From: a virus
Taxonomy: Duplodnaviria > Heunggongvirae > Uroviricota > Caudoviricetes
Strand: one strand, 5' to 3'
DNA length: 9,116 nucleotides
Virus record (IMG/VR): IMGVR_UViG_2698536397_000007
Span: 1 to 9,116 of that record
Shown here piece after piece: positions 1 through 6,924 of the stretch. The notes under the pieces are model-generated. The model saw only the letters and a program-made list of their open reading frames with translations, did not search any database and had not been told where the DNA came from. Position 1 is the stretch's first letter. The number at the start of each line of letters is the position of its first letter. The translations under genes and the position numbers were made by a program.

Positions 1-75
1 CACCCGCAAGGGCCAACGCCAATTGAATGGCTGAAACAGGAATACGAACGCCGGAAGGCAGCTGGTTTTATTTGA
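1..75 (+). CDS. 3' end of an upstream gene (partial; product unknown, possibly the last gene of the replication module)
   Basis: Frame open from the window edge to TGA 73-75 (…HPQGPTPIEWLKQEYERRKAAGFI*); no start codon inside the window. Product is a guess from position only. Confidence 0.35.
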   Translation, partial: HPQGPTPIEWLKQEYERRKAAGFI

Positions 76-108
76 ATCTGAGAAGCGATTTTGTAGGAGG
101 AAATTTTA

Positions 109-870
109 ATGGAAACCGTTTTTGACGCACTGAAAGCAATGGGAAAAGCCAGCTCTGTTGGACTGGCTGAGCGGCTTGATATCAGTCGTGAAGAGGTTCT
201 CAACGAACTGTGGGAACTCAAAAGAAATGGCGTTGTTGATAAAGCGGGTCACATCTGGTTTCTGGCTGGCGAAGGTGAATCCGGGGTAACCGAAGAGCAG
301 CCAGAACAGTCTGAAGTACCGGATGTGCTGACCGGGGAGGTCGAACAAAAAGTTACCGCAGACATGATGATTGAGTTTATCGGTCAGGAGGGGGCTAAAA
401 CGTGTGAGGAACTGGCGGATAAGTTCGGTGTTAGCATTCGCAAGGTTGCTTCCACGTTGGCGGTGGTAACCGCAACGGGACGCCTGGCACGCGTAAATCA
501 GAACGGTAAATTTCGTTACTGCATGCCGGGCGATAATTTACCAGCAGAGCCGAAAGCCGTGCCGGTAACGGAAAATGATGGTAAGGCCTTTCCTCAGCCA
601 GCAGGTGTTGCGTTACCAGTACAGGAATCTGCAACACAGGAAGATATTAAAACAGAAACAGTGGCGGACATTGTGCAGTCGTTGCCATCGTTTACCGAAA
701 CGCAAGCAGATGAGCTGATTTTTCTGTCCCTGTGCAGGGCAAACCTGGCGCTGCGCAGGGCGAAAAGTGATGTTCAGAAGTGGGAGCGAGTCTGTGCCGC
801 GCTGCGGGAACTGAACAAACACAGGGATATTCTCCGGGATATTACCGCCACCAGAGAGCTGCTGCGGTGA
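109..870 (+). CDS. Conserved lambdoid-prophage hypothetical protein with N-terminal winged-helix-like domain (DUF1627-like, family name from memory)
   Basis: ATG 109 preceded by AGGAGG at 95-100 (8-nt spacer); 253 aa; N-terminal segment [26 protein letters not shown] resembles a winged-helix fold, followed by an acidic linker; stop TGA 868-870 overlaps the next candidate start. Confidence 0.75.
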
Positions 871-1184
871 GTGGCTGGAAGAAGTGGCGCTGGGCGGAAA
901 TTATGATACTCCGGCAGTGTGCGGGAACGATGACAGTCGAAAGCATCGGCAGTCTGATTGGCCGTAGTGGGGCTGCCGTCAGGACGAAAGCGCGGGAACT
1001 GGGTATCTGCATGATGTTACGGGGTGATTATCACCAGTCAGCCAAATGTTCACAGCGTGATATTGAGCTGGCGCGGCAACTGCATCAGCGTGGCGTACCC
1101 CGACGGGAAATTGCCGAAAAGTTTGGGATGAAGTTGGGCGCAGTGAATAACTACGTTTATTTCGACAGGAGGGTTCAGGCGTGA
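867..1184 (+). CDS. Hypothetical small protein with two helix-turn-helix-like segments
   Basis: GTG 867 overlaps the upstream stop (GTGA); alternative in-frame ATG at 903. Segments [22 protein letters not shown] and [19 protein letters not shown] look HTH-like. Stop TGA 1182-1184 overlaps the next start. Start codon and function are uncertain. Confidence 0.5.
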
Positions 1185-1486
1185 GGGTGAGAATTTATAT
1201 CGCCGGTCCGATGACGGGATATGAAAATTTCAACCGTGAGGCGTTTCACAGGGCGGAAGAAGCACTGAAACGGGAAGGGCATACCGTTTTAAACCCGGCA
1301 GTACTTCCGGACGGACTGACACAGCCACACTACATGGATATTTGCATGGCGATGATACGCTGCGTGGATGCGATTTACATGCTGAAAGGCTGGCAGCGGT
1401 CGGCAGGCGCTAAGGCAGAACTGGCACTGGCGGAGAAACTGGGACATGCGGTTATTTTCCAGGAGGCAACCAGTGAGAAAAATTAA
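1181..1486 (+). CDS. DUF4406-like protein (nucleoside 2-deoxyribosyltransferase-like fold)
   Basis: GTG 1181 with AGGAGG at 1167-1172 (8-nt spacer); 101 aa; N-terminal IYIAGPMTG…NF…F…G…V.NP pattern typical of DUF4406/NDT-like proteins (recalled, not searched). Confidence 0.7.
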   Translation: MRVRIYIAGPMTGYENFNREAFHRAEEALKREGHTVLNPAVLPDGLTQPHYMDICMAMIRCVDAIYMLKGWQRSAGAKAELALAEKLGHAVIFQEATSEKN

Positions 1487-2036
1487 TTATCAGACGCTAC
1501 GTGAGATAGCAAAACTGGCAACCCAGGGCGAATGGGTCGCATTCATTTCGCCGGGCACTGATACATATGCGGTGCATACGCCGGGGGATGAACGTTGCGG
1601 AGACATTATCAAATGGCCTGGCTTTGATGACCAGAAAAATGCAGAGAACAACGCAGAATTTATTGCAGCTTTCAACCCTGAAGTAGTACAGGCACTGCTG
1701 GATGAACGGGAAGCCCAAAGCAAACGTATTGCAGAGCTGGAAGCTAATCTTGTGGCGCTGGCGGCGGAGAATGCACTTGCTCGTAAAGCAGTTCAGGCAT
1801 TCTGCGATGTTGTTGGCGACAACACCGAGGTTATCGCTGAGGAGGTTGGGCGAGATGGCGTTCTGGTTATCTTGGAGGCCATGAAAGCAACAGGAAATAT
1901 GCCTGCCACCGATGCTTTCCTGGCTGAAGTACGAGCGCAGGGCGTGGAGATGTTTGCGGAGTGTGCATACACACTTGAACATCATGATCACGCAGTAGCC
2001 TTCGCCGCTGAGCTTCGCAAAGGAGGCAACCAGTGA
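1473..2036 (+). CDS. Ead/Ea22-like prophage protein (paralog 1)
   Basis: GTG 1473 with AGGAGG at 1461-1466; the 17-nt start context aggaggcaaccagtgag is identical to that of the next gene (2021-2037). Conserved N-terminal Y-Q-LR…A-GEW and NAEFIAA-NP…LLDERE blocks are shared with the downstream paralog. The six-frame ATG at 1446 is a less likely start (no SD, 40-nt overlap). Confidence 0.7.
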   Translation: MRKINYQTLREIAKLATQGEWVAFISPGTDTYAVHTPGDERCGDIIKWPGFDDQKNAENNAEFIAAFNPEVVQALLDEREAQSKRIAELEANLVALAAENALARKAVQAFCDVVGDNTEVIAEEVGRDGVLVILEAMKATGNMPATDAFLAEVRAQGVEMFAECAYTLEHHDHAVAFAAELRKGGNQ

Positions 2037-2710
2037 GCAAGATTGACTATCAGGCATTGCGTGCTAAGGCAGAAAAAGCAACGTGTGGCGAGTGGTCGCT
2101 CGAATATGGAGAGGGACGATTTGATGGTGATGATGCGCTAATTCATCGTGAAGTTGCTGGATATATTCCCATTTGCAGAATTGAAGGAGCGCATCCTGAA
2201 AGCGGTTTCGATGAAGATTTCCAAATGGAACAGCAGGCCAATGCTGAATTCATCGCCGCAGCCAATCCAGCTACCGTGCTGGCGCTGCTGGATGAACGGG
2301 AAAGAAACCAGCAATACATCAAACGCCGCGACTAGGAGAACGAGGATATTGCGCTAACGGTAGGGAAGCTGCGTGTTGAGCTGGAAGCAGCAGAGAAGCG
2401 GATTGCTGAGCTGCAGGCGCGGGACGTTAAGCCAGTTGCATGGATGAGGAATGCTAACGTCACATCATTCATGTTGAGGTTCACAACCGATGAGAAATAT
2501 GCAGTTGAGCAATGGGGTGATGATGCAGTTGCCCTCTATCCACTCCCTGTAGCTTTCATCCCTGCATGCTTTACAGACGAAAGAAATCTCATGCATATCA
2601 ACGAGCGCGGGCGAGAAACGTCACTTATCTGGAGTAAGCAGAACTCAGACAGCGGCGACATTAAACTTTTTCGTATCGCCGCCGCAGCCGGTAAAGGAGA
2701 GGAATCATGA
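2033..2710 (+). pseudogene. Ead/Ea22-like paralog 2 interrupted by an in-frame TAG at 2333-2335
   Basis: GTG 2033 with the same SD as paralog 1. The frame runs 2033-2332, hits TAG at 2333-2335, then continues in the same frame with no further stop to TGA 2708-2710 (…YIKRRD*ENEDIALTVGKLRVELEAAEKRIAELQARDVKPVAW…). The downstream part has no SD of its own (first ATG at 2444). Confidence 0.55.
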
Positions 2711-3237
2711 GCACTATCACAAGAGAATGGCTGCAGCAGGCTATCAACGATTATGAAAGCGTTCGTGATGAGCTTCCTTTCGGGCTTGATGATTACCAGG
2801 GGAATATCCTGGCTTCCCTGCGTATCGCACTGGCATCTCTGGAAGCAGAGCCGGTGGCGTGGAAGGTAACATTCACGCAAATTGACCGTGAATATAACAC
2901 GTTCACTGGTATGTATTCTGACAAAGCAGAAGTCGAACGGTGGGTGCGGCTGCATAAAGCATGTAATTTTCGGGCAGATATAACACCGCTTTATACCGCC
3001 AAGCCAGTGCCGGTAACTCCGGATGGTTGGATAAGCTGTAGTGAGCGAATGCCGGATACCAAAACAGCCGTTCTTGTTGCCAGGGAGTTTGACAGGAAAG
3101 GTGACTGGCGAATGAAATGGGCGACTTACATCCCGGGGCATCCTGACGCTAATGATGGGTGGGTAGTACCTGGTGCGTCGTGGATACCATCACACTGGAT
3201 GCCGCTACCAGAACCGCCGAAGGAGGTGCGCCAATGA
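2707..3237 (+). CDS. DUF551-domain prophage protein
   Basis: ATG 2707 overlaps the upstream stop (ATGA), SD-like AGGAGA at 2695-2700; 176 aa; C-terminal WISCSERMPD…SHWMPLPEPPK matches the DUF551 signature as recalled. Confidence 0.75.
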   Translation: MSTITREWLQQAINDYESVRDELPFGLDDYQGNILASLRIALASLEAEPVAWKVTFTQIDREYNTFTGMYSDKAEVERWVRLHKACNFRADITPLYTAKPVPVTPDGWISCSERMPDTKTAVLVAREFDRKGDWRMKWATYIPGHPDANDGWVVPGASWIPSHWMPLPEPPKEVRQ

Positions 3238-3317
3238 GCTGGCCTGAGGCCTTCTCAAATGTTGGTATTGCAATGGCGGTGGCGCTGGTGGTGTATTCGA
3301 TTTGCCGCTGGGGATAA
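3234..3317 (+). CDS. Small hydrophobic peptide (27 aa, probable single transmembrane helix)
   Basis: ATG 3234 overlaps the DUF551 stop (ATGA) and has a perfect AGGAGG at 3221-3226 with a 7-nt spacer; encodes MSWPEAFSNVGIAMAVALVVYSICRWG, stop TAA 3315-3317. Too short for the supplied ORF track. Confidence 0.45.
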   Translation: MSWPEAFSNVGIAMAVALVVYSICRWG

Positions 3318-3327
3318 ATCGCCGAAA

Positions 3328-3361
3328 AAAGATCCCGCCACAAACATGAGCCGGGATCTTT
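3328..3361. terminator. Bidirectional intrinsic terminator between convergent transcription units
   Basis: 10-bp stem AAAGATCCCG (3328-3337) / CGGGATCTTT (3352-3361) with a 14-nt loop; A-run 3325-3330 upstream (a T-run on the minus strand) and T-rich sequence downstream. Lies between the plus-strand operon end (3317) and the minus-strand toxin gene end (3440). Confidence 0.5.
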
Positions 3362-3439
3362 GATTTATATAGCCTACGAATCCGCAGTAAGAGAGGGGCA
3401 GACGGTTTATTCTAACACCGGAATGATGTGGGTAAAAGT

Positions 3440-3739
3440 TTATAAGAAATCGGTTTCATAACTTTGCCCACCATGATAGATACCGACAATAAAGACTTTT
3501 CTGCCATCAACGGCAAAAGCAATAATCGTTCTGTGGCGGAAATGAGTTACCCGCATCCCCTGGCGAATATCATCGCGTTTATTGCCCCGATGCGGGAATG
3601 TAGAAAACCCATCAAGATAATCAAGAAGCGCATTGGCATAATTGTCAGCAATGACGTTCCCTGCTTTCTCCGTTATATATCTGTGCAGGTTGATTATTTG
3701 TTGTTCGGCCTCAGGAGTAATGATGACTTCATATGTCAT
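3440..3739 (-). CDS. ParE/RelE-superfamily type II toxin
   Basis: 99 aa (MTYEVIITPEAEQQI…RVTHFRHRTIIAFAVDGRKVFIVGIYHGGQSYETDFL), a size and pattern typical of ParE-like toxins; start 5 nt after the stop of the upstream RHH antitoxin gene on the same strand. Confidence 0.8.
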   Translation of the reverse strand: MTYEVIITPEAEQQIINLHRYITEKAGNVIADNYANALLDYLDGFSTFPHRGNKRDDIRQGMRVTHFRHRTIIAFAVDGRKVFIVGIYHGGQSYETDFL

Positions 3740-3744
3740 GCAGA

Positions 3745-4002
3745 TTACTTCCCGGATCGAATCGCGGCGCGAACCTGTGAAATGGAGCGTCCGTTGTTTG
3801 GGTTTTCGCGGATAGAATCAAGAGAGGGGGCGGCTGAATGCGTTAACCACGCTTCGATTGCTTTATCGCGCTCATTCAGTGCGCGAAGCCCTTCACGAAT
3901 GACCTCGCTTTCTGAAGCATAGGCACCGGAAGCCACACGGGCGCGCACCATGTCAGCCATCTCGTTAGTTAATGTAATGCTGAATTGTTGGGTTGTACGC
4001 AT
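3745..4002 (-). CDS. ParD-like ribbon-helix-helix antitoxin
   Basis: Start taken at ATG 4002-4000 (MRTTQQFSITLTNEMADMVRARVASG…) because GTGAGG lies 6 nt upstream on the minus strand; 85 aa. The longer six-frame ORF starting at 4065 has no SD. Antitoxin-then-toxin order is canonical. Confidence 0.75.
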   Translation of the reverse strand: MRTTQQFSITLTNEMADMVRARVASGAYASESEVIREGLRALNERDKAIEAWLTHSAAPSLDSIRENPNNGRSISQVRAAIRSGK

Positions 4003-4021
4003 GGTAAACCTCACGGAGTAG

Positions 4022-4065
4022 GATAGAACACTATTCGATGATAGCACGCTGCCTGTTGACGACAA
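4022..4065 (-). promoter_or_regulatory. Putative toxin-antitoxin promoter and operator
   Basis: On the minus strand: -35-like TTGTCG (plus 4060-4065), 16-bp spacer, -10 TATCAT (plus 4038-4043). Near the predicted transcription start are two GATAG direct repeats (4022-4026, 4039-4043) and an ATAG-n4-CTAT inverted repeat (4024-4035). A plus-strand TTGACG (4054-4059) suggests a divergent promoter. Hexamer matching by eye only. Confidence 0.3.
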
Positions 4066-4137
4066 CAGAAATCAGAGACAATATTGCCGCACGCCAGCCT
4101 GAACAACTGGCACCTGCTGCGCCAGCAGAGACAACCG

Positions 4138-4416
4138 ATGGCGCAAGATACCAAATTACACAATTCGGATAACTCCACCGCCCCTGCCAGCAGGCACGGG
4201 CGGCGTTCTCATGCATTCAAATCTGACTGGTTCCAGCATGACCCATGCACTGAAGAACAGGCCGAATGGCTGATCCAGTGCTACCGCAGACGTGGTTACG
4301 AGTTTCAGAAAGATCTCAGCTTCGATCGTCGTCACTGGATAATCTCCGTCAGGCTCCCTTATTCCGAACGCCCACCGCGTCCGTCCCGCACATTCCAGCA
4401 GCGCATCTGGAGGTAA
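4138..4416 (+). CDS. Hypothetical protein, translationally coupled to the DUF968 gene
   Basis: Open frame ending at TAA 4414-4416, 1 nt before the DUF968 GTG start, and containing that gene's GGAGG. Start uncertain: ATG 4138 or the six-frame TTG at 4084, neither with a strong SD. Confidence 0.45.
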   Translation: MAQDTKLHNSDNSTAPASRHGRRSHAFKSDWFQHDPCTEEQAEWLIQCYRRRGYEFQKDLSFDRRHWIISVRLPYSERPPRPSRTFQQRIWR

Positions 4417-4417
4417 C

Positions 4418-5476
4418 GTGCGGGTATTACTTCGACCTGTTCTGGTACCGGAACTCGGGATGGTGCTCCTTAAGCCGGGCCGTGAATCAATGTCAGCATT
4501 CCATAACGGCAGAATATTGGTGGAACCGGAACCGAAAAACATGCGCGGTCTGCCGTCCGGAGTCGTTCCTGCCGTTCGCCAGCCGCTGGCAGAGGATAAA
4601 ACATTACTGCCATTTTTCAGCGATGAGCGGGTTATTCGTGCAGCAGGTGGTGCAGGTGCACTGTCTGACTGGTTATTACGTCACGTGAAATCCTGCCAGT
4701 GGCCACACGGTGATTATCATCACAGCGAAACCGTCATTCACCGTTACGGTACCGGCGCGATGGTGTTGTGCTGGCACTGTGACAACCAGCTGCGCGACCA
4801 GACATCAGAATCACTCGATCAACTTGCTCAGCAGAATCTGGTTGCCTGGATGATTGACGTCATCCGTCACGCAATAAGCAGTACGCAGGAGAGGGAGTTA
4901 TCGCTGGCCGAATTATCCTGGTGGGCGGTCTGCAATCAGGTGGTGGATGCACTACCTGAGGCAGTAGTGCGTCGTTCGCTGGGATTACCAGCGGAAAAAA
5001 TCCGCTCCGTATACCGTGAGAGCGACATCGTACCGGGAGAGCAGGCCGCCACCAGCATACTGAAGCAGCGCACAAAAAATATTGCGCTGCCACTTCACGT
5101 CCACCAGCAACAAAATCCCCCCCAGGAAAAGACGTTAGTAAGCATCGCCGTTGATCCGGAGTCTCCGGCTCAGTACCTCCAGCGCCAGAAACCACAACGG
5201 GAAGAGATGCCTGTATACACGCGCTGGGTAAAAACGCAGAAATGCATGACGTGTGGCAATCAGGCAGATGATCCGCATCACATCATTGGTCATGGACTGG
5301 GAGGTATGGGAACAAAGGCTGACGATTTGTTTGTTATTCCGTTATGCCGTAAATGCCATAACGAACTACACGCCGGGGTAAAAGATTTTGAAGAGAAACA
5401 CGGCAGTCAGCTGTTGTTGCTGATTCGTTTTTTAATGCACGCGAGAAATTCGGGTGTTCTGAAGTGGAAAGCATAA
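4418..5476 (+). CDS. DUF968 (YdfU-like) protein with C-terminal HNH-type nuclease motif
   Basis: GTG 4418 with GGAGG at 4409-4413; 352 aa; C-terminus CMTCGNQADDPHHIIGHGLGG…DDLFVIPLCRKCHNELH is a CxxC…HH…CxxCH…H HNH/zinc-finger signature; stop TAA 5474-5476 abuts the rusA start. Same placement next to Q as ydfU in the E. coli K-12 Qin prophage (recalled). Confidence 0.85.
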   Translation: MRVLLRPVLVPELGMVLLKPGRESMSAFHNGRILVEPEPKNMRGLPSGVVPAVRQPLAEDKTLLPFFSDERVIRAAGGAGALSDWLLRHVKSCQWPHGDYHHSETVIHRYGTGAMVLCWHCDNQLRDQTSESLDQLAQQNLVAWMIDVIRHAISSTQERELSLAELSWWAVCNQVVDALPEAVVRRSLGLPAEKIRSVYRESDIVPGEQAATSILKQRTKNIALPLHVHQQQNPPQEKTLVSIAVDPESPAQYLQRQKPQREEMPVYTRWVKTQKCMTCGNQADDPHHIIGHGLGGMGTKADDLFVIPLCRKCHNELHAGVKDFEEKHGSQLLLLIRFLMHARNSGVLKWKA

Positions 5477-5842
5477 ATGACCGAGCGCATAGAATTTGTT
5501 TTGCCTTACCCGCCGACGGTGAACACTTACTGGCGACGCCGTGGCAGCACATATTTTATATCGGAGGAGGGAAAGCGCTATCGCCGGGCAGTGGCGCTTA
5601 TTGTTCGCCAGCAGCGGCTGAAATTAAGCCTGTCCGGACGGCTGGCAATAAAAATTATTGCAGAGCCACCGGATAAGCGTCGTCGTGACCTGGACAACAT
5701 TCTGAAAGCACCGCTGGATGCGCTGACGCATGCGGGAGTGCTCATTGATGACGAGCAGTTTGATGAAATCAATATTGTACGTGGTCAGCTTGTTCTTGGT
5801 GGTCGGCTGGGTGTGAAGATTTACAAAATTGAGAGTGAGTGA
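5477..5842 (+). CDS. rusA: RusA-family Holliday junction resolvase
   Basis: ATG 5477 immediately after the upstream TAA; 121 aa; LPYPPTVNTYW…DKRRRDLDNILKAPLDALTHAGVLIDDEQ matches the RusA signature with its conserved acidic residues. Confidence 0.9.
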   Translation: MTERIEFVLPYPPTVNTYWRRRGSTYFISEEGKRYRRAVALIVRQQRLKLSLSGRLAIKIIAEPPDKRRRDLDNILKAPLDALTHAGVLIDDEQFDEINIVRGQLVLGGRLGVKIYKIESE

Positions 5843-6411
5843 GCGTAAATATGATATATCCGGAAATTACAGGCAAAAGCGGCGAACATTTACGCCTGAA
5901 CACGCTGGAAGCAGTCTGGATCCAGGGGAAATTACGGATGTGGGGGCGGTGGTCGTATATCGGTGGGGGTAAATCCGGAAATATGTTTAACCGGTTACTG
6001 GTTTCGAAAAAGCTGACGAAAACAGCAGTTAATGAAGTTTTACGCAGAATGAAGAAATCTGGGCTGGATAAACCGGAACTTGAGGCATTTTTTCGGGATA
6101 TGACCAGAGGGAAGCAGAAGAGCTGGTTGTCACATTGTACAGACACAGAGGCGTTGATTATTGATCGCGTTATCAGTGAGGTGCTTGGGGAATATCCCGG
6201 GCTAATCAATATTCTCCGGCAAAGGTACGAAGGACGAGGAATGAGCAAACTGAAAATGGCCGAAAGGTTAAATGCAGATCATCCTGAGTGGACGTTGGTT
6301 ACGTGCAGACGCCGAATTGATCAGTGGTTGGGGATATCTGAATTTATGTTACATGCCCCCATGCGTATGGCTTTTGTTACAGAGAAAAAAATGTTGCAAA
6401 CTGATCAATAA
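5839..6411 (+). CDS. Putative late-gene antiterminator Q (phage 21/82 type, PF06530-like as recalled)
   Basis: GTG 5839 overlaps the rusA stop (GTGA); alternative ATG at 5851. 190 aa with an LE-VW…WGRW…G block reminiscent of Q21-type antiterminators. Position directly after DUF968/rusA and before a promoter-terminator unit fits Q. Identification is by synteny and weak motif recall. Confidence 0.55.
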   Translation: MSVNMIYPEITGKSGEHLRLNTLEAVWIQGKLRMWGRWSYIGGGKSGNMFNRLLVSKKLTKTAVNEVLRRMKKSGLDKPELEAFFRDMTRGKQKSWLSHCTDTEALIIDRVISEVLGEYPGLINILRQRYEGRGMSKLKMAERLNADHPEWTLVTCRRRIDQWLGISEFMLHAPMRMAFVTEKKMLQTDQ

Positions 6412-6482: not shown

Positions 6483-6504
6483 GCCACCGGAAGGTGGTTT
6501 TTTT
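6483..6504 (+). terminator. Intrinsic terminator (tR'-like) downstream of Q
   Basis: Stem CCACC (6484-6488) / GGTGG (6493-6497), loop GGAA, followed by seven T (6498-6504). Confidence 0.5.
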
Positions 6505-6627
6505 GTGTCCGTAATATACAGCAGCGCAATAAATTCGCTGGTGGTTATTAATACCGTTCTTTCAGCTTGCTGGCTTTTTCGACAAGAGTTATTGGTGTGT
6601 CACGTTAACCGGAAAAGGGGAAAAGAC

Positions 6628-6825
6628 ATGCTGAAACAGCAGGATATGACAGAAACCGCCAGGGCAGTGTTTAATGAATTAAGCGTCACCGAACCGGCGA
6701 CAGTCGGGGAGATTGCGCAGAATACTTACCTTTCACGCGAACGCTGTCAGTTAATACTGACCCAGCTTGTTATGGCGGGTCTGGCAGACTATCAGTTCGG
6801 TTGTTACAGACGCCTTCAGTCCTGA
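6628..6825 (+). CDS. Small hypothetical protein (65 aa), possible winged-helix/HTH DNA-binding protein
   Basis: ATG 6628 with AAGGGG at 6615-6620 (7-nt spacer); MLKQQDMTETARAVFNELSVTEPATVGEIAQNTYLSRERCQLILTQLVMAGL…; stop TGA 6823-6825 lies inside a terminator stem. The six-frame GTG start at 6505 sits in the upstream terminator T-tract and was not used. Confidence 0.55.
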   Translation: MLKQQDMTETARAVFNELSVTEPATVGEIAQNTYLSRERCQLILTQLVMAGLADYQFGCYRRLQS

Positions 6826-6838
6826 AGGCTTTTTTATT
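6812..6838 (+). terminator. Intrinsic terminator
   Basis: Perfect 8-bp stem GCCTTCAG (6812-6819) / CTGAAGGC (6822-6829), 2-nt loop, followed by TTTTTTATTT. Confidence 0.6.
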
Positions 6839-6924
6839 TGTGGTAAATGGGCGGCTGGTGGGTGTTAGGGGCACTCACCAGCCATCTGCTCATGCGTCCG
6901 GATCACAAGCAAACCTCAGGCCCA

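Follow-up and report, generated by a model that had tools for sequence, protein, structure and literature searches.

We analysed a window of 9,116 nt (the whole stretch of DNA) and found on its minus strand a parD gene followed by a parE gene, with 5 nt between them. The parD gene (4002..3745; ATG at 4002, stop at 3745-3747) encodes an 85-aa antitoxin, and parE (3440..3739; ATG at 3739, stop at 3440-3442) encodes a toxin of 99 aa from the ParE clade of the RelE/ParE superfamily. The pair is a genuine yet ordinary two-gene toxin-antitoxin cassette that lies reversed inside a lambda-like E. coli prophage. These are the only two genes between the promoter and the terminator described below, and a third regulator gene is absent. 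A ParD gene likewise precedes the toxin gene in 16 of the 17 related loci examined across the Proteobacteria. As the first-pass annotation had proposed, the pair is the sole minus-strand coding unit of the window. All other genes are on the plus strand in a RefSeq locus of 99.6% identity, a comparison that covers the aligning parts of the window (1-5824 and 6496-8045). Pfam searches returned zero matches for seven other minus-strand ORFs of 64-201 aa (1497-2057, 2536-3141, 3149-3343, 4156-4542, 4860-5195, 5769-6248 and 7045-7506), and the plus-strand ORF of 152 aa antisense to parD and parE (3464-3922) was taken as a shadow ORF. The pair had earlier been given a right end at 4065, which is both the TTG of the longest ORF and the base where the -35 hexamer starts. 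We moved the start of parD to the ATG at 4002 because all homologues start with MRTTQQ and because a ribosome-binding site predicted from the sequence, GTGAGG (4009..4014, minus strand), lies 6 nt upstream of this ATG.

We compared both proteins with curated profiles. ParD scored above the cut-offs of Pfam PF03693 (32.1 bits, cut-off 21; residues 6-51) and of the NCBIfam model TIGR02606 for the CC2985 type (53.8 bits, cut-off 46.2; residues 8-51), both matches being confined to the N-terminal part of the protein. At the sequence level it also matched the solved ParD antitoxins 3kxe, 7b22, 6x0a, 8c24 and 5ceg (over residues 3-51 for the first four) and, among the PHROGs, phrog_6494 (E 2e-56). 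The ParD N-terminus is a ribbon-helix-helix (RHH) DNA-binding domain, and the C-terminal half presumably binds the toxin. ParE matched Pfam PF05016 over profile positions 1-89 of 89 (40.9 bits, cut-off 23) and the PHROGs family phrog_5232, described as 'toxin' (E 3e-43), while no NCBIfam model matched it.

Both PF05016 and the PGAP/NCBI name 'RelE/ParE family' cover RelE and ParE alike, and on these names the toxin could be a ribosome-dependent mRNA endonuclease of the RelE type. Because a PDB sequence search with ParE gave one weak match only (6x0a, E 0.007), this question was settled by the fold. The AlphaFold2 model of ParE (pLDDT 85) has two long N-terminal helices (9-26 and 28-46), which form the hairpin typical of ParE, followed by a three-stranded antiparallel sheet (61-67, 71-78 and 81-89). 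In a Foldseek comparison with the PDB, the best 23 matches were all ParE-clade (TM 0.62-0.78) and included Caulobacter ParE1, Vibrio ParE2, P. aeruginosa ParE and M. tuberculosis ParE1, whereas RelE, YoeB and YafQ reached only 0.37-0.49 (0.35-0.49 with HigB included). The Foldseek matches to YoeB, YafQ and RelE that might favor an endonuclease had E-values of 4e-3 and weaker. An hhalign comparison with E. coli RelE gave a probability of 0.5% and left the C-terminal catalytic residues of RelE unaligned, and the partner protein is a ParD-type RHH antitoxin and not RelB. We therefore consider a RelE-type activity extremely unlikely. Because the curated profile cut-offs were passed and the ParE fold was matched, the profile searches place the pair in the ParD and ParE families, and the concern attached to the original assignment, that such searches might lead to unrelated families, falls away.

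Upstream of parD lies an extended -10 sigma-70 promoter (4065..4038, minus strand), in agreement with the earlier claim that the pair has a promoter of its own. It consists of a -35 hexamer TTGTCG (4065-4060), a spacer of 16 nt, and an extended -10 element TG-n-TATCAT (4046-4038). The match to the consensus is 9/12, and in our promoter scan such sites were no commoner in the region than in shuffled sequences. In an alignment of five genera that spans E. coli, Yersinia and Izhakiella, the promoter blocks GTCGTCAA and GTGCTA are invariant, as is the TGAG of the parD ribosome-binding site.

We identified a putative ParD operator (4018..4034; GTAGGATAGAACACTAT on the plus strand) located after the -10 hexamer and before the ribosome-binding site. 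Of 18 distant related loci, drawn from Enterobacterales, Burkholderiales, Desulfovibrio and Dyella, 16 have a palindrome of 17 bp, GTAGGAT-N3-ATCCTAC, in the corresponding position in front of parD, with 0-4 mismatches. This conserved palindrome is new in this analysis. One half-site of the copy in the window is perfect (4018-4024, GTAGGAT) and the other is degenerate; the left half-site is degenerate in the E. coli/Salmonella/Yersinia clade, and the operator core ATAGTGTTC-ATCCTA is invariant in the five genera. Although 4018-4034 is the only match to the palindrome with three or fewer mismatches in the window, we note that this is non-significant by itself (0.21 expected, and 38 of 200 shuffles reach it). 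What supports the putative operator is where it lies and that it recurs in 16 of the 18 related loci. The GATAG and CTAT repeats that had previously been described as operator-like are real, and represent the degenerate local form of this palindrome. Reading the upstream CTATC...GAATAG...CTATCC repeats as two separate operators was rejected, as only the promoter-proximal 17-mer is conserved across genera. The region 4022-4065, which had been proposed for a gel-shift assay (EMSA), cuts off the sole perfect half-site of the putative operator.

Downstream of the pair, 79 nt beyond the parE stop, lies a hairpin with the properties of a bidirectional intrinsic terminator (3328..3361), with an A/U-flanked G+C stem of 10 bp and U-runs on both strands. 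Its folding energy is -19.0 kcal/mol on the minus strand (z -3.7) and -15.3 kcal/mol on the plus strand (z -3.9), and none of 200 shuffles folded as well. The consensus terminator scan missed this hairpin because its loop is longer than 8 nt. The same scan flagged a weak site inside parE (3518-3499), which we disregarded. The hairpin is present in the copies of the cassette in phage ArgO145 and locus L025, and absent from those in locus L024 and Salmonella locus L006. The view that the pair has its own terminator was therefore only partly right: a hairpin with a U-run does lie downstream of parE, but it is shared and bidirectional, and is missing from two of the copies.

We delimited the cassette by blastn end points, which fall at 3234-4085 in ArgO145 (96.6% identity), 3442-4085 in Salmonella L006 (86.5%), 3441-4300 in L024 and 3234-4300 in L025. 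The minimal portable cassette (3441..4085, minus strand) extends from just past the parE stop to a divergent -10 element, and a larger block of 852 bp (3234-4085) is common to the window, ArgO145 and L025. The divergent element belongs to a relic of a back-to-back promoter on the plus strand (4053..4085), with TTGACG (4056-4061), 18 nt, and AATATT (4080-4085). The palindrome CTGTTGACGACAACAG (4053-4068) supplies the -35 element for both directions. ArgO145, Salmonella, Yersinia and Izhakiella carry the same plus-strand promoter (with a -10 element TATATT or TATAGT) and, downstream of it, isrK and C4 antisense RNA genes, and the homology of the window to these loci stops at 4085. In the left arm of the Stx2a phage ArgO145 the 852-bp block is also antisense, within a different operon. 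The parE region (3450-3749) has 43% G+C compared with 48-57% in flanking windows outside the cassette, and PHROGs places both genes in the category 'moron'. The autonomous moron arrangement suggested in the first-pass annotation is borne out by the two phage contexts, the lower G+C of parE, and the PHROGs category. The cassette thus has the attributes of a moron, namely its own predicted promoter and terminator and a discrete block found in different contexts, although the terminator is not in every copy.

We counted the pair in 328 out of 5426 complete E. coli genomes, invariably in the chromosome, and it is widespread among prophages of non-O157 STEC, EPEC and ETEC. The exact ParE and ParD proteins were each found on at least 1000 public contigs, labelled as RelE/ParE toxin and ParD antitoxin. 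In PA2-type Stx2a phages of O157:H7, parE is deleted to 7 codons, while parD is intact and its promoter kept. This shows the 'orphan ParD' of PA2-like Stx2a phages to be a parE-deletion derivative of the same cassette. The orphan ParD of PA2 is 87% identical to the ParD of the window, and every difference falls after residue 47. Because parE is deleted there and parD retained, the toxin gene must be dispensable to these phages. In phage phi346, an ORF of 93 aa that separates the orphan parD from an HTH gene was considered as a HigB toxin and rejected, as it has no Pfam match and is lipoprotein-like, with a signal sequence. Because this ORF is not HigB-like, the published description of the antitoxin as an orphan stands.

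The loss of parE in one phage lineage raises the question of whether the pair in the window is itself a decaying, non-functional remnant. A neighboring methyltransferase gene in the window is frameshifted, and the prophage may for this reason be degrading. Against decay of the pair, both ORFs are intact, 20 of 20 family-invariant residues of the toxin are present in ParE, and the promoter, putative operator and ribosome-binding site are conserved. Moreover, among the 365 E. coli genomes with any match, the coding pair is conserved at 95% identity or more in 323. We consider it extremely unlikely that the pair is a remnant.

The cassette is a canonical, self-contained type II parD-parE moron, antisense to the early genes of the prophage. 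From family membership, we consider it probable that the antitoxin represses its own operon and that the toxin poisons gyrase, the two forming an addiction module. The bicistronic parD-parE unit has a single extended -10 sigma-70 promoter in front of it and the hairpin with its U-tract behind it. By analogy with the family, the putative operator would be bound, and the operon repressed, by dimers of ParD and more tightly by complexes of ParD with ParE, ParE would be wrapped and neutralized by the C-terminus of ParD, and ParD would have a shorter lifetime than ParE. Loss of the cassette, or a halt in its expression, would leave free ParE to poison DNA gyrase, with double-strand breaks and SOS induction, cell filamentation, and arrest of growth or death as the outcome. 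The net effect would be addiction, a penalty on cells that lose the prophage segment. Because it would be active only in the lysogen, and from its own promoter, the cassette would be independent of the opposing phage early operons. Chromosomally integrated prophages are rarely lost, and the benefit of addiction is arguable for this reason.

Our literature search retrieved no experimental study of this parD/parE pair. Several characterized systems resemble it. Caulobacter crescentus ParD1-ParE1 (3KXE, CC2985-type) and Mesorhizobium opportunistum ParD3-ParE3 (5CEG, 6X0A) have the same antitoxin-toxin order, an RHH N-terminus in ParD, the ParE fold (5ceg and 3kxe by Foldseek), and a palindromic promoter site. 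They differ in that the toxins are only 19-24% identical to ours and are encoded on the bacterial chromosome proper, whereas the pair in the window belongs to a lambdoid prophage. The RK2/RP4 parDE system shares the proposed mechanism, being a two-gene autoregulated addiction module whose ParE poisons gyrase and whose loss leads to SOS and filamentation (PMC10899753). It differs in being plasmid-borne, and RK2 ParE was unmatched when we searched the window toxin against the PDB by sequence. To our knowledge, the structure of RK2 ParE has not been solved. Shewanella ParESO-CopASO resembles our pair in that the ParE is prophage-borne and an RHH antitoxin binds inverted repeats of its own promoter, and there a ParE-type pair was seen to stabilize the prophage, CP4So (PMC8706911). 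The differences are a CopA/CopG-like antitoxin, another operator sequence and a P4-like phage, and for the window pair stabilization is presumed. PaaR-PaaA-ParE of E. coli O157:H7 prophages (5CW7) likewise places a ParE-fold toxin in an EHEC prophage (TM about 0.7), but the window has no third regulator and its antitoxin is an RHH ParD of 85 aa instead of a short PaaA without a DNA-binding domain. The window pair is accordingly not a three-component system of this kind, and the PDB sequence search gave no match of its ParE to O157 ParE2.

The same cassette and regulation could serve a ParE-fold toxin with a target other than DNA gyrase. The identity of the window toxin to any characterized ParE, including those with a proven target, is only 12-24%, and we know of no sequence motif established as diagnostic of gyrase binding. 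PfiT (9w3a), PrpT (7ycs) and O157 ParE2 (5cw7) are among the best structural matches, with scores equal to those of gyrase-inhibiting ParEs. Some ParE-fold toxins do not inhibit gyrase, with precedents in E. coli O157 ParE2 and M. tuberculosis ParE2 (PMC8706911), and PfiT of phage Pf4 is a regulator of prophage production (PMC13048266, PMC7264888). However, GyrA is the target of most ParE toxins (PMC8706911), and most characterized ParEs whose partner is a CC2985-type RHH ParD (TIGR02606) poison gyrase (PMC8706911, PMC10899753). The window pair also lacks the odd partners of the exceptions: it has no PaaA-like short antitoxin and no PaaR regulator, and, because ParE is only 99 aa long, no PfiT-like C-terminal extension. 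We judge a different target to be unlikely, and retain gyrase poisoning as the proposed activity.

The cassette occupies a variable site of the lambdoid prophage just upstream of a block of genes encoding a hypothetical protein, DUF968, RusA and Q. The slot had been likened to that of relBE-hokD in the Qin prophage of K-12, and the analogy stands for position. The flank at 4121-5370 is about 80% identical to Qin ydfU (DUF968) and its upstream sequence, relB-relE-hokD-rem lies just beyond, and the toxins share a superfamily. It does not stand for orientation: parDE is antisense, but the Qin genes point the same way as ydfU and Q, from which rem separates them. In addition, RelE is an mRNA endonuclease that pairs with RelB.

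In other prophages this slot contains relBE-hokD, hok or other accessory genes, which would suit a main selected role in phage defense or competition as opposed to stabilization. Infection or the shut-off of host transcription would deplete ParD, and the freed ParE would abort the infection. The location is typical of prophage defense 'morons', and the cassette has its own promoter, predicted to be active in the lysogen. The PA2-type Stx2a phages, with an intact, promoter-bearing parD and a lost parE, would make sense if ParD served them as an antidote, a possibility raised in PMC12502783. On the other hand, no PADLOC-DB 2.0 family matched ParE or ParD at E ≤0.1, DefenseFinder does not recognize orphan antitoxins as anti-defense genes, and no classic antitoxin has been verified as such (PMC12502783). 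The orphan parD may simply be the remnant of a recent deletion in a clonal lineage. We regard defense as a possible main role, although a less likely one than the addiction proposed above. A more specific version would make the cassette a weapon between prophages: parD would be shut off by a phage entering the cell, or by antisense transcription running on out of the antiterminated early operon, ParE would be released, and the orphan parD of PA2-type phages would act as an antidote for infecting, or coexisting with, parDE lysogens. We offer this version as speculation and think it improbable.

The pair itself is already known, as identical proteins are so labelled in public databases across hundreds of genomes. 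As a routine, homology-annotated type II toxin-antitoxin module it matters little beyond correct annotation. Now that a probable operator (4018-4034) and the correct start of parD have been defined, a binding or reporter assay can be properly designed, and the bounds of the cassette are set (3441-4085 or 3234-4085) for deletion or transfer experiments. Should ParE poison gyrase, switching it on in an Stx lysogen could favor prophage induction through the SOS response (compare CcdB, PMC10899753). If the cassette were in addition a weapon between prophages, release of such a ParE would add to the SOS response by which Stx prophages are induced, and this would link the cassette to toxin production.

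Judged by its gene content, the window belongs to a mosaic lambdoid E. coli prophage. We established this content from the ORF list, Pfam and a 99.6% identical annotated RefSeq locus (aligned over window positions 1-5824). From left to right, the window encodes DUF1627, a DNA-binding protein, DUF4406, Ea22-like proteins, DUF551, the flagged pair, a small hypothetical protein, DUF968, RusA, a DUF1133/Q-like antiterminator and a DNA methyltransferase. The flagged minus-strand pair comprises parD (85 aa, ATG 4002 to TAA 3747-3745) and parE (99 aa, ATG 3739 to stop 3442-3440), separated by 5 nt (TCTGC), with GGGAAG 8 nt 5' of the parE start. Every homologue starts with MRTTQQ, and ATG 4002 is preceded at a distance of 6 nt by GTGAGG; we therefore placed the parD start there and rejected TTG 4065, which opens the longest ORF. 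The first-pass annotation described the pair as the only minus-strand coding unit. This holds, since the remaining genes of the annotated relative, within the part aligning to the window, are all on the plus strand, and the seven other minus-strand window ORFs (64-201 aa) have no Pfam match.

Profile searches bore out the proposed ParD/ParE assignment. The toxin matched Pfam ParE_toxin (PF05016) end to end (40.9 bits, cut-off 23), and the antitoxin matched PF03693 (32.1 bits, cut-off 21) and NCBIfam TIGR02606 (ParD, CC2985 type; 53.8 bits, cut-off 46.2). In PHROGs, the two are phrog_5232 ("toxin") and phrog_6494 ("antitoxin"), both in the category "moron". Because PF05016 spans ParE and RelE alike, we modelled the toxin structure, using a 23-sequence alignment. 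The model (pLDDT 85, pTM 0.76) opens with a pair of long helices at the N-terminus and continues into a sheet of three strands. In a Foldseek search of the PDB, the first 23 chains were all ParE-clade (TM 0.62-0.78), including PfiT, Mesorhizobium ParE3, P. aeruginosa ParE, PrpT, M. tuberculosis ParE1 and ParE2, O157 ParE2, Vibrio ParE2 and Caulobacter ParE1, whereas YoeB, YafQ, RelE and HigB ranked below them with TM scores of only 0.35-0.49. Profile comparison of the toxin with E. coli RelE gave a probability of 0.5%. Over its N-terminal 50 residues, the antitoxin matches the RHH domains of ParD proteins of known structure. With 1158 representatives at 50% identity (E up to 1e-3), the family is large. 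Of the 17 related loci that we examined, from Enterobacterales, Burkholderiales, Desulfovibrio, Dyella and one Beijerinckiaceae genome, 16 have a ParD gene directly 5' of the toxin gene.

A promoter scan placed the parDE promoter on the minus strand, with a -35 of TTGTCG (4065-4060), a 16-nt spacer and a -10 of TATCAT (4043-4038) with an upstream TG. It scores only 9/12, and such sites are no commoner in the region than in its shuffles. Stronger support for this predicted promoter comes from aligning the upstream regions of E. coli, phage ArgO145, Salmonella, Yersinia and Izhakiella, which share four invariant blocks separated by variable sequence: GTCGTCAA (-35), GTGCTA (extended -10), ATAGTGTTC-ATCCTA, and TGAG (ribosome-binding site). 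The third block is this locus's version of the palindrome GTAGGAT-N3-ATCCTAC. Of 18 related loci, 16 have the palindrome at the same position 5' of parD (six copies perfect, another eight with only one or two mismatches). The window copy, a putative operator at 4018-4034 to which the GATAG/CTAT repeats noted earlier belong, has one perfect half-site (4018-4024) and one degenerate one. A match with up to three mismatches is not significant in the window alone (0.21 expected), and the case for an operator draws on the palindrome's position and its recurrence across loci. It spans approximately -3 to +14 relative to the predicted transcription start, as expected of an operator that would block RNA polymerase. 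The N-terminal strand of ParD (MRTTQQFSIT), the putative DNA reader, is nearly invariant over the same loci, in keeping with the conserved half-site.

Downstream of parE, a hairpin at 3328-3361 (-19 kcal/mol on the minus strand, -15.3 on the plus) is followed by U-runs on both strands; not one of 200 shuffled sequences reached its stability. The pair had been credited with its own terminator; a terminator is indeed predicted, but it is bidirectional, belongs to a larger block and is missing from some copies of the cassette. The homology of the Stx2a podovirus ArgO145 coincides exactly with window 3234-4085 (96.6%), and in that phage the block sits on the left arm, towards the integrase end, there too antisense to its neighbours. 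Homology covers 3442-4085 in a Salmonella chromosome and begins at 3441 in E. coli OkiPb01697, where parE is separated from the early genes by a hok gene and one other gene. These end points define 3441-4085 as the minimal unit. At 43%, the G+C content of the parE region (3450-3749) is lower than the 48-57% of flanking windows outside the cassette.

The first-pass annotation also placed the pair in the slot filled by relBE-hokD in the K-12 prophage Qin. The position is correct, since window 4121-5370 is ~80% identical to ydfU (DUF968) and its upstream sequence and rem-hokD-relE-relB lies just beyond the end of this homology. The orientation differs: the Qin genes are co-directional with ydfU and Q, whereas parDE is antisense.

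Both edges of the larger block carry further features. The parD -35 sits within a 16-bp palindrome (4053-4068) that also yields a plus-strand promoter (4053-4085, TTGACG-18-AATATT). The same divergent promoter, with a -10 of TATATT or TATAGT, stands ahead of isrK and C4 antisense RNA genes in ArgO145, Salmonella, Yersinia and Izhakiella (Rfam, 53-81 bits; 5767-5949 in ArgO145, 3462-3648 in the Salmonella locus, and 3458-3643 and 2127-2312 in the other two, L016 and L021); in the phages among these an anti-repressor gene comes next. Window homology ends at 4085, and therefore only a promoter relic is left, now pointing toward the hypothetical-DUF968-RusA-Q genes. At the other edge, an unannotated plus-strand ORF of 27 codons (3234-3317) encodes a hydrophobic peptide, MSWPEAFSNVGIAMAVALVVYSICRWG, with no PHROG or Pfam match. 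Its ATG overlaps the DUF551 stop (ATGA), with AAGGAGGTG immediately 5'. It follows three unrelated upstream genes, each with an ATGA overlap, in ArgO145 (4907) and in two further cassette-bearing loci, L024 (3028) and L025 (3793). Because its copies differ mostly by synonymous or conservative changes, it appears to be a genuine gene for a small membrane protein.

Elsewhere in the window, homology to the otherwise 99.6% identical relative is absent over the segment 5825-6495, which contains the Q-type antiterminator (DUF1133/Phage_antitermQ, 5839-6411). That relative has a different antiterminator gene, making this a mosaic swap of the late-gene regulator. The plus-strand methyltransferase gene (6976-8015) is split over two reading frames. 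Compared with the relative's intact 352-aa gene, it lacks one base in each of two G runs (near 7388 and 7907); either the gene is a pseudogene or the sequence has homopolymer errors. Downstream are two tandem plus-strand copies of the STnc100 sRNA (8112-8320 and 8382-8590; Rfam RF02076, 130.7 and 183 bits). We found no tRNA or stx genes in the window. The relative carries tRNA-Ile, two tRNA-Arg and stx2b between the methyltransferase and its match to window 8353-9116, and the window prophage looks like an stx-negative relative of an Stx2b phage.

The full pair occurs in 328 of 5426 complete E. coli genomes, chromosomal in all, with carriers including O26, O103, O111 and O145 STEC and porcine ETEC. 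The window-type junction with the DUF968 upstream region was counted in 328 of the complete genomes and the ArgO145-type junction in 42. Public databases contain identical copies of the toxin and of the antitoxin on at least 1000 contigs each, under the names "type II toxin-antitoxin system RelE/ParE family toxin" and "ParD family antitoxin"; the GenBank record of ArgO145 labels them as a TA pair too. In PA2-type Stx2a phages, parD persists (87% aa identity) together with the promoter and operator described above, but only a 7-codon stump of parE (MAYEVPH*) is left, and a lipoprotein-like ORF and an HTH (HigA-like) gene have taken its place. This parE-deleted cassette (2194-2777 in the PA2 and phi346 loci) is present in 37 complete E. 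coli genomes; the four listed are O157:H7/EHEC strains. Deletion from the parDE cassette explains the "orphan ParD antitoxin" reported for these phages (PMC12502783). The annotated relative carries a second RelE/ParE-RelB pair beside its repressor gene (5619-6097 of that locus, outside the window, in the same prophage type), and its host genome has a second parD copy elsewhere with an ArgO145-type junction; a single lysogen thus contains several TA modules.

The pair is best read as a canonical, autoregulated ParD-ParE addiction module that has its own promoter, active in the lysogen. The gene arrangement, families, fold, conserved promoter with putative operator, terminator and portability are documented here. 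By analogy with the family, ParD or the ParD-ParE complex would repress at 4018-4034, ParD would be the labile partner, its C-terminus would neutralise ParE, and free ParE would poison gyrase. Work on other family members supports these steps: RK2 ParE is a gyrase inhibitor, and parDE loss leads to SOS and filamentation (PMC10899753); GyrA is the target of most ParE toxins, with exceptions including O157 ParE2, and a ParE-type pair stabilises prophage CP4So (PMC8706911). A role in defence is conceivable but gained no support from our searches: PADLOC had no model matching ParD or ParE, and our literature search found no experimental paper on this pair. The finding is correct, yet known at the annotation level, and its mechanism is ordinary. 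What our analysis adds is a conserved putative operator, a corrected start codon, the limits of the cassette and the origin of the "orphan ParD" of PA2-type Stx2a phages.
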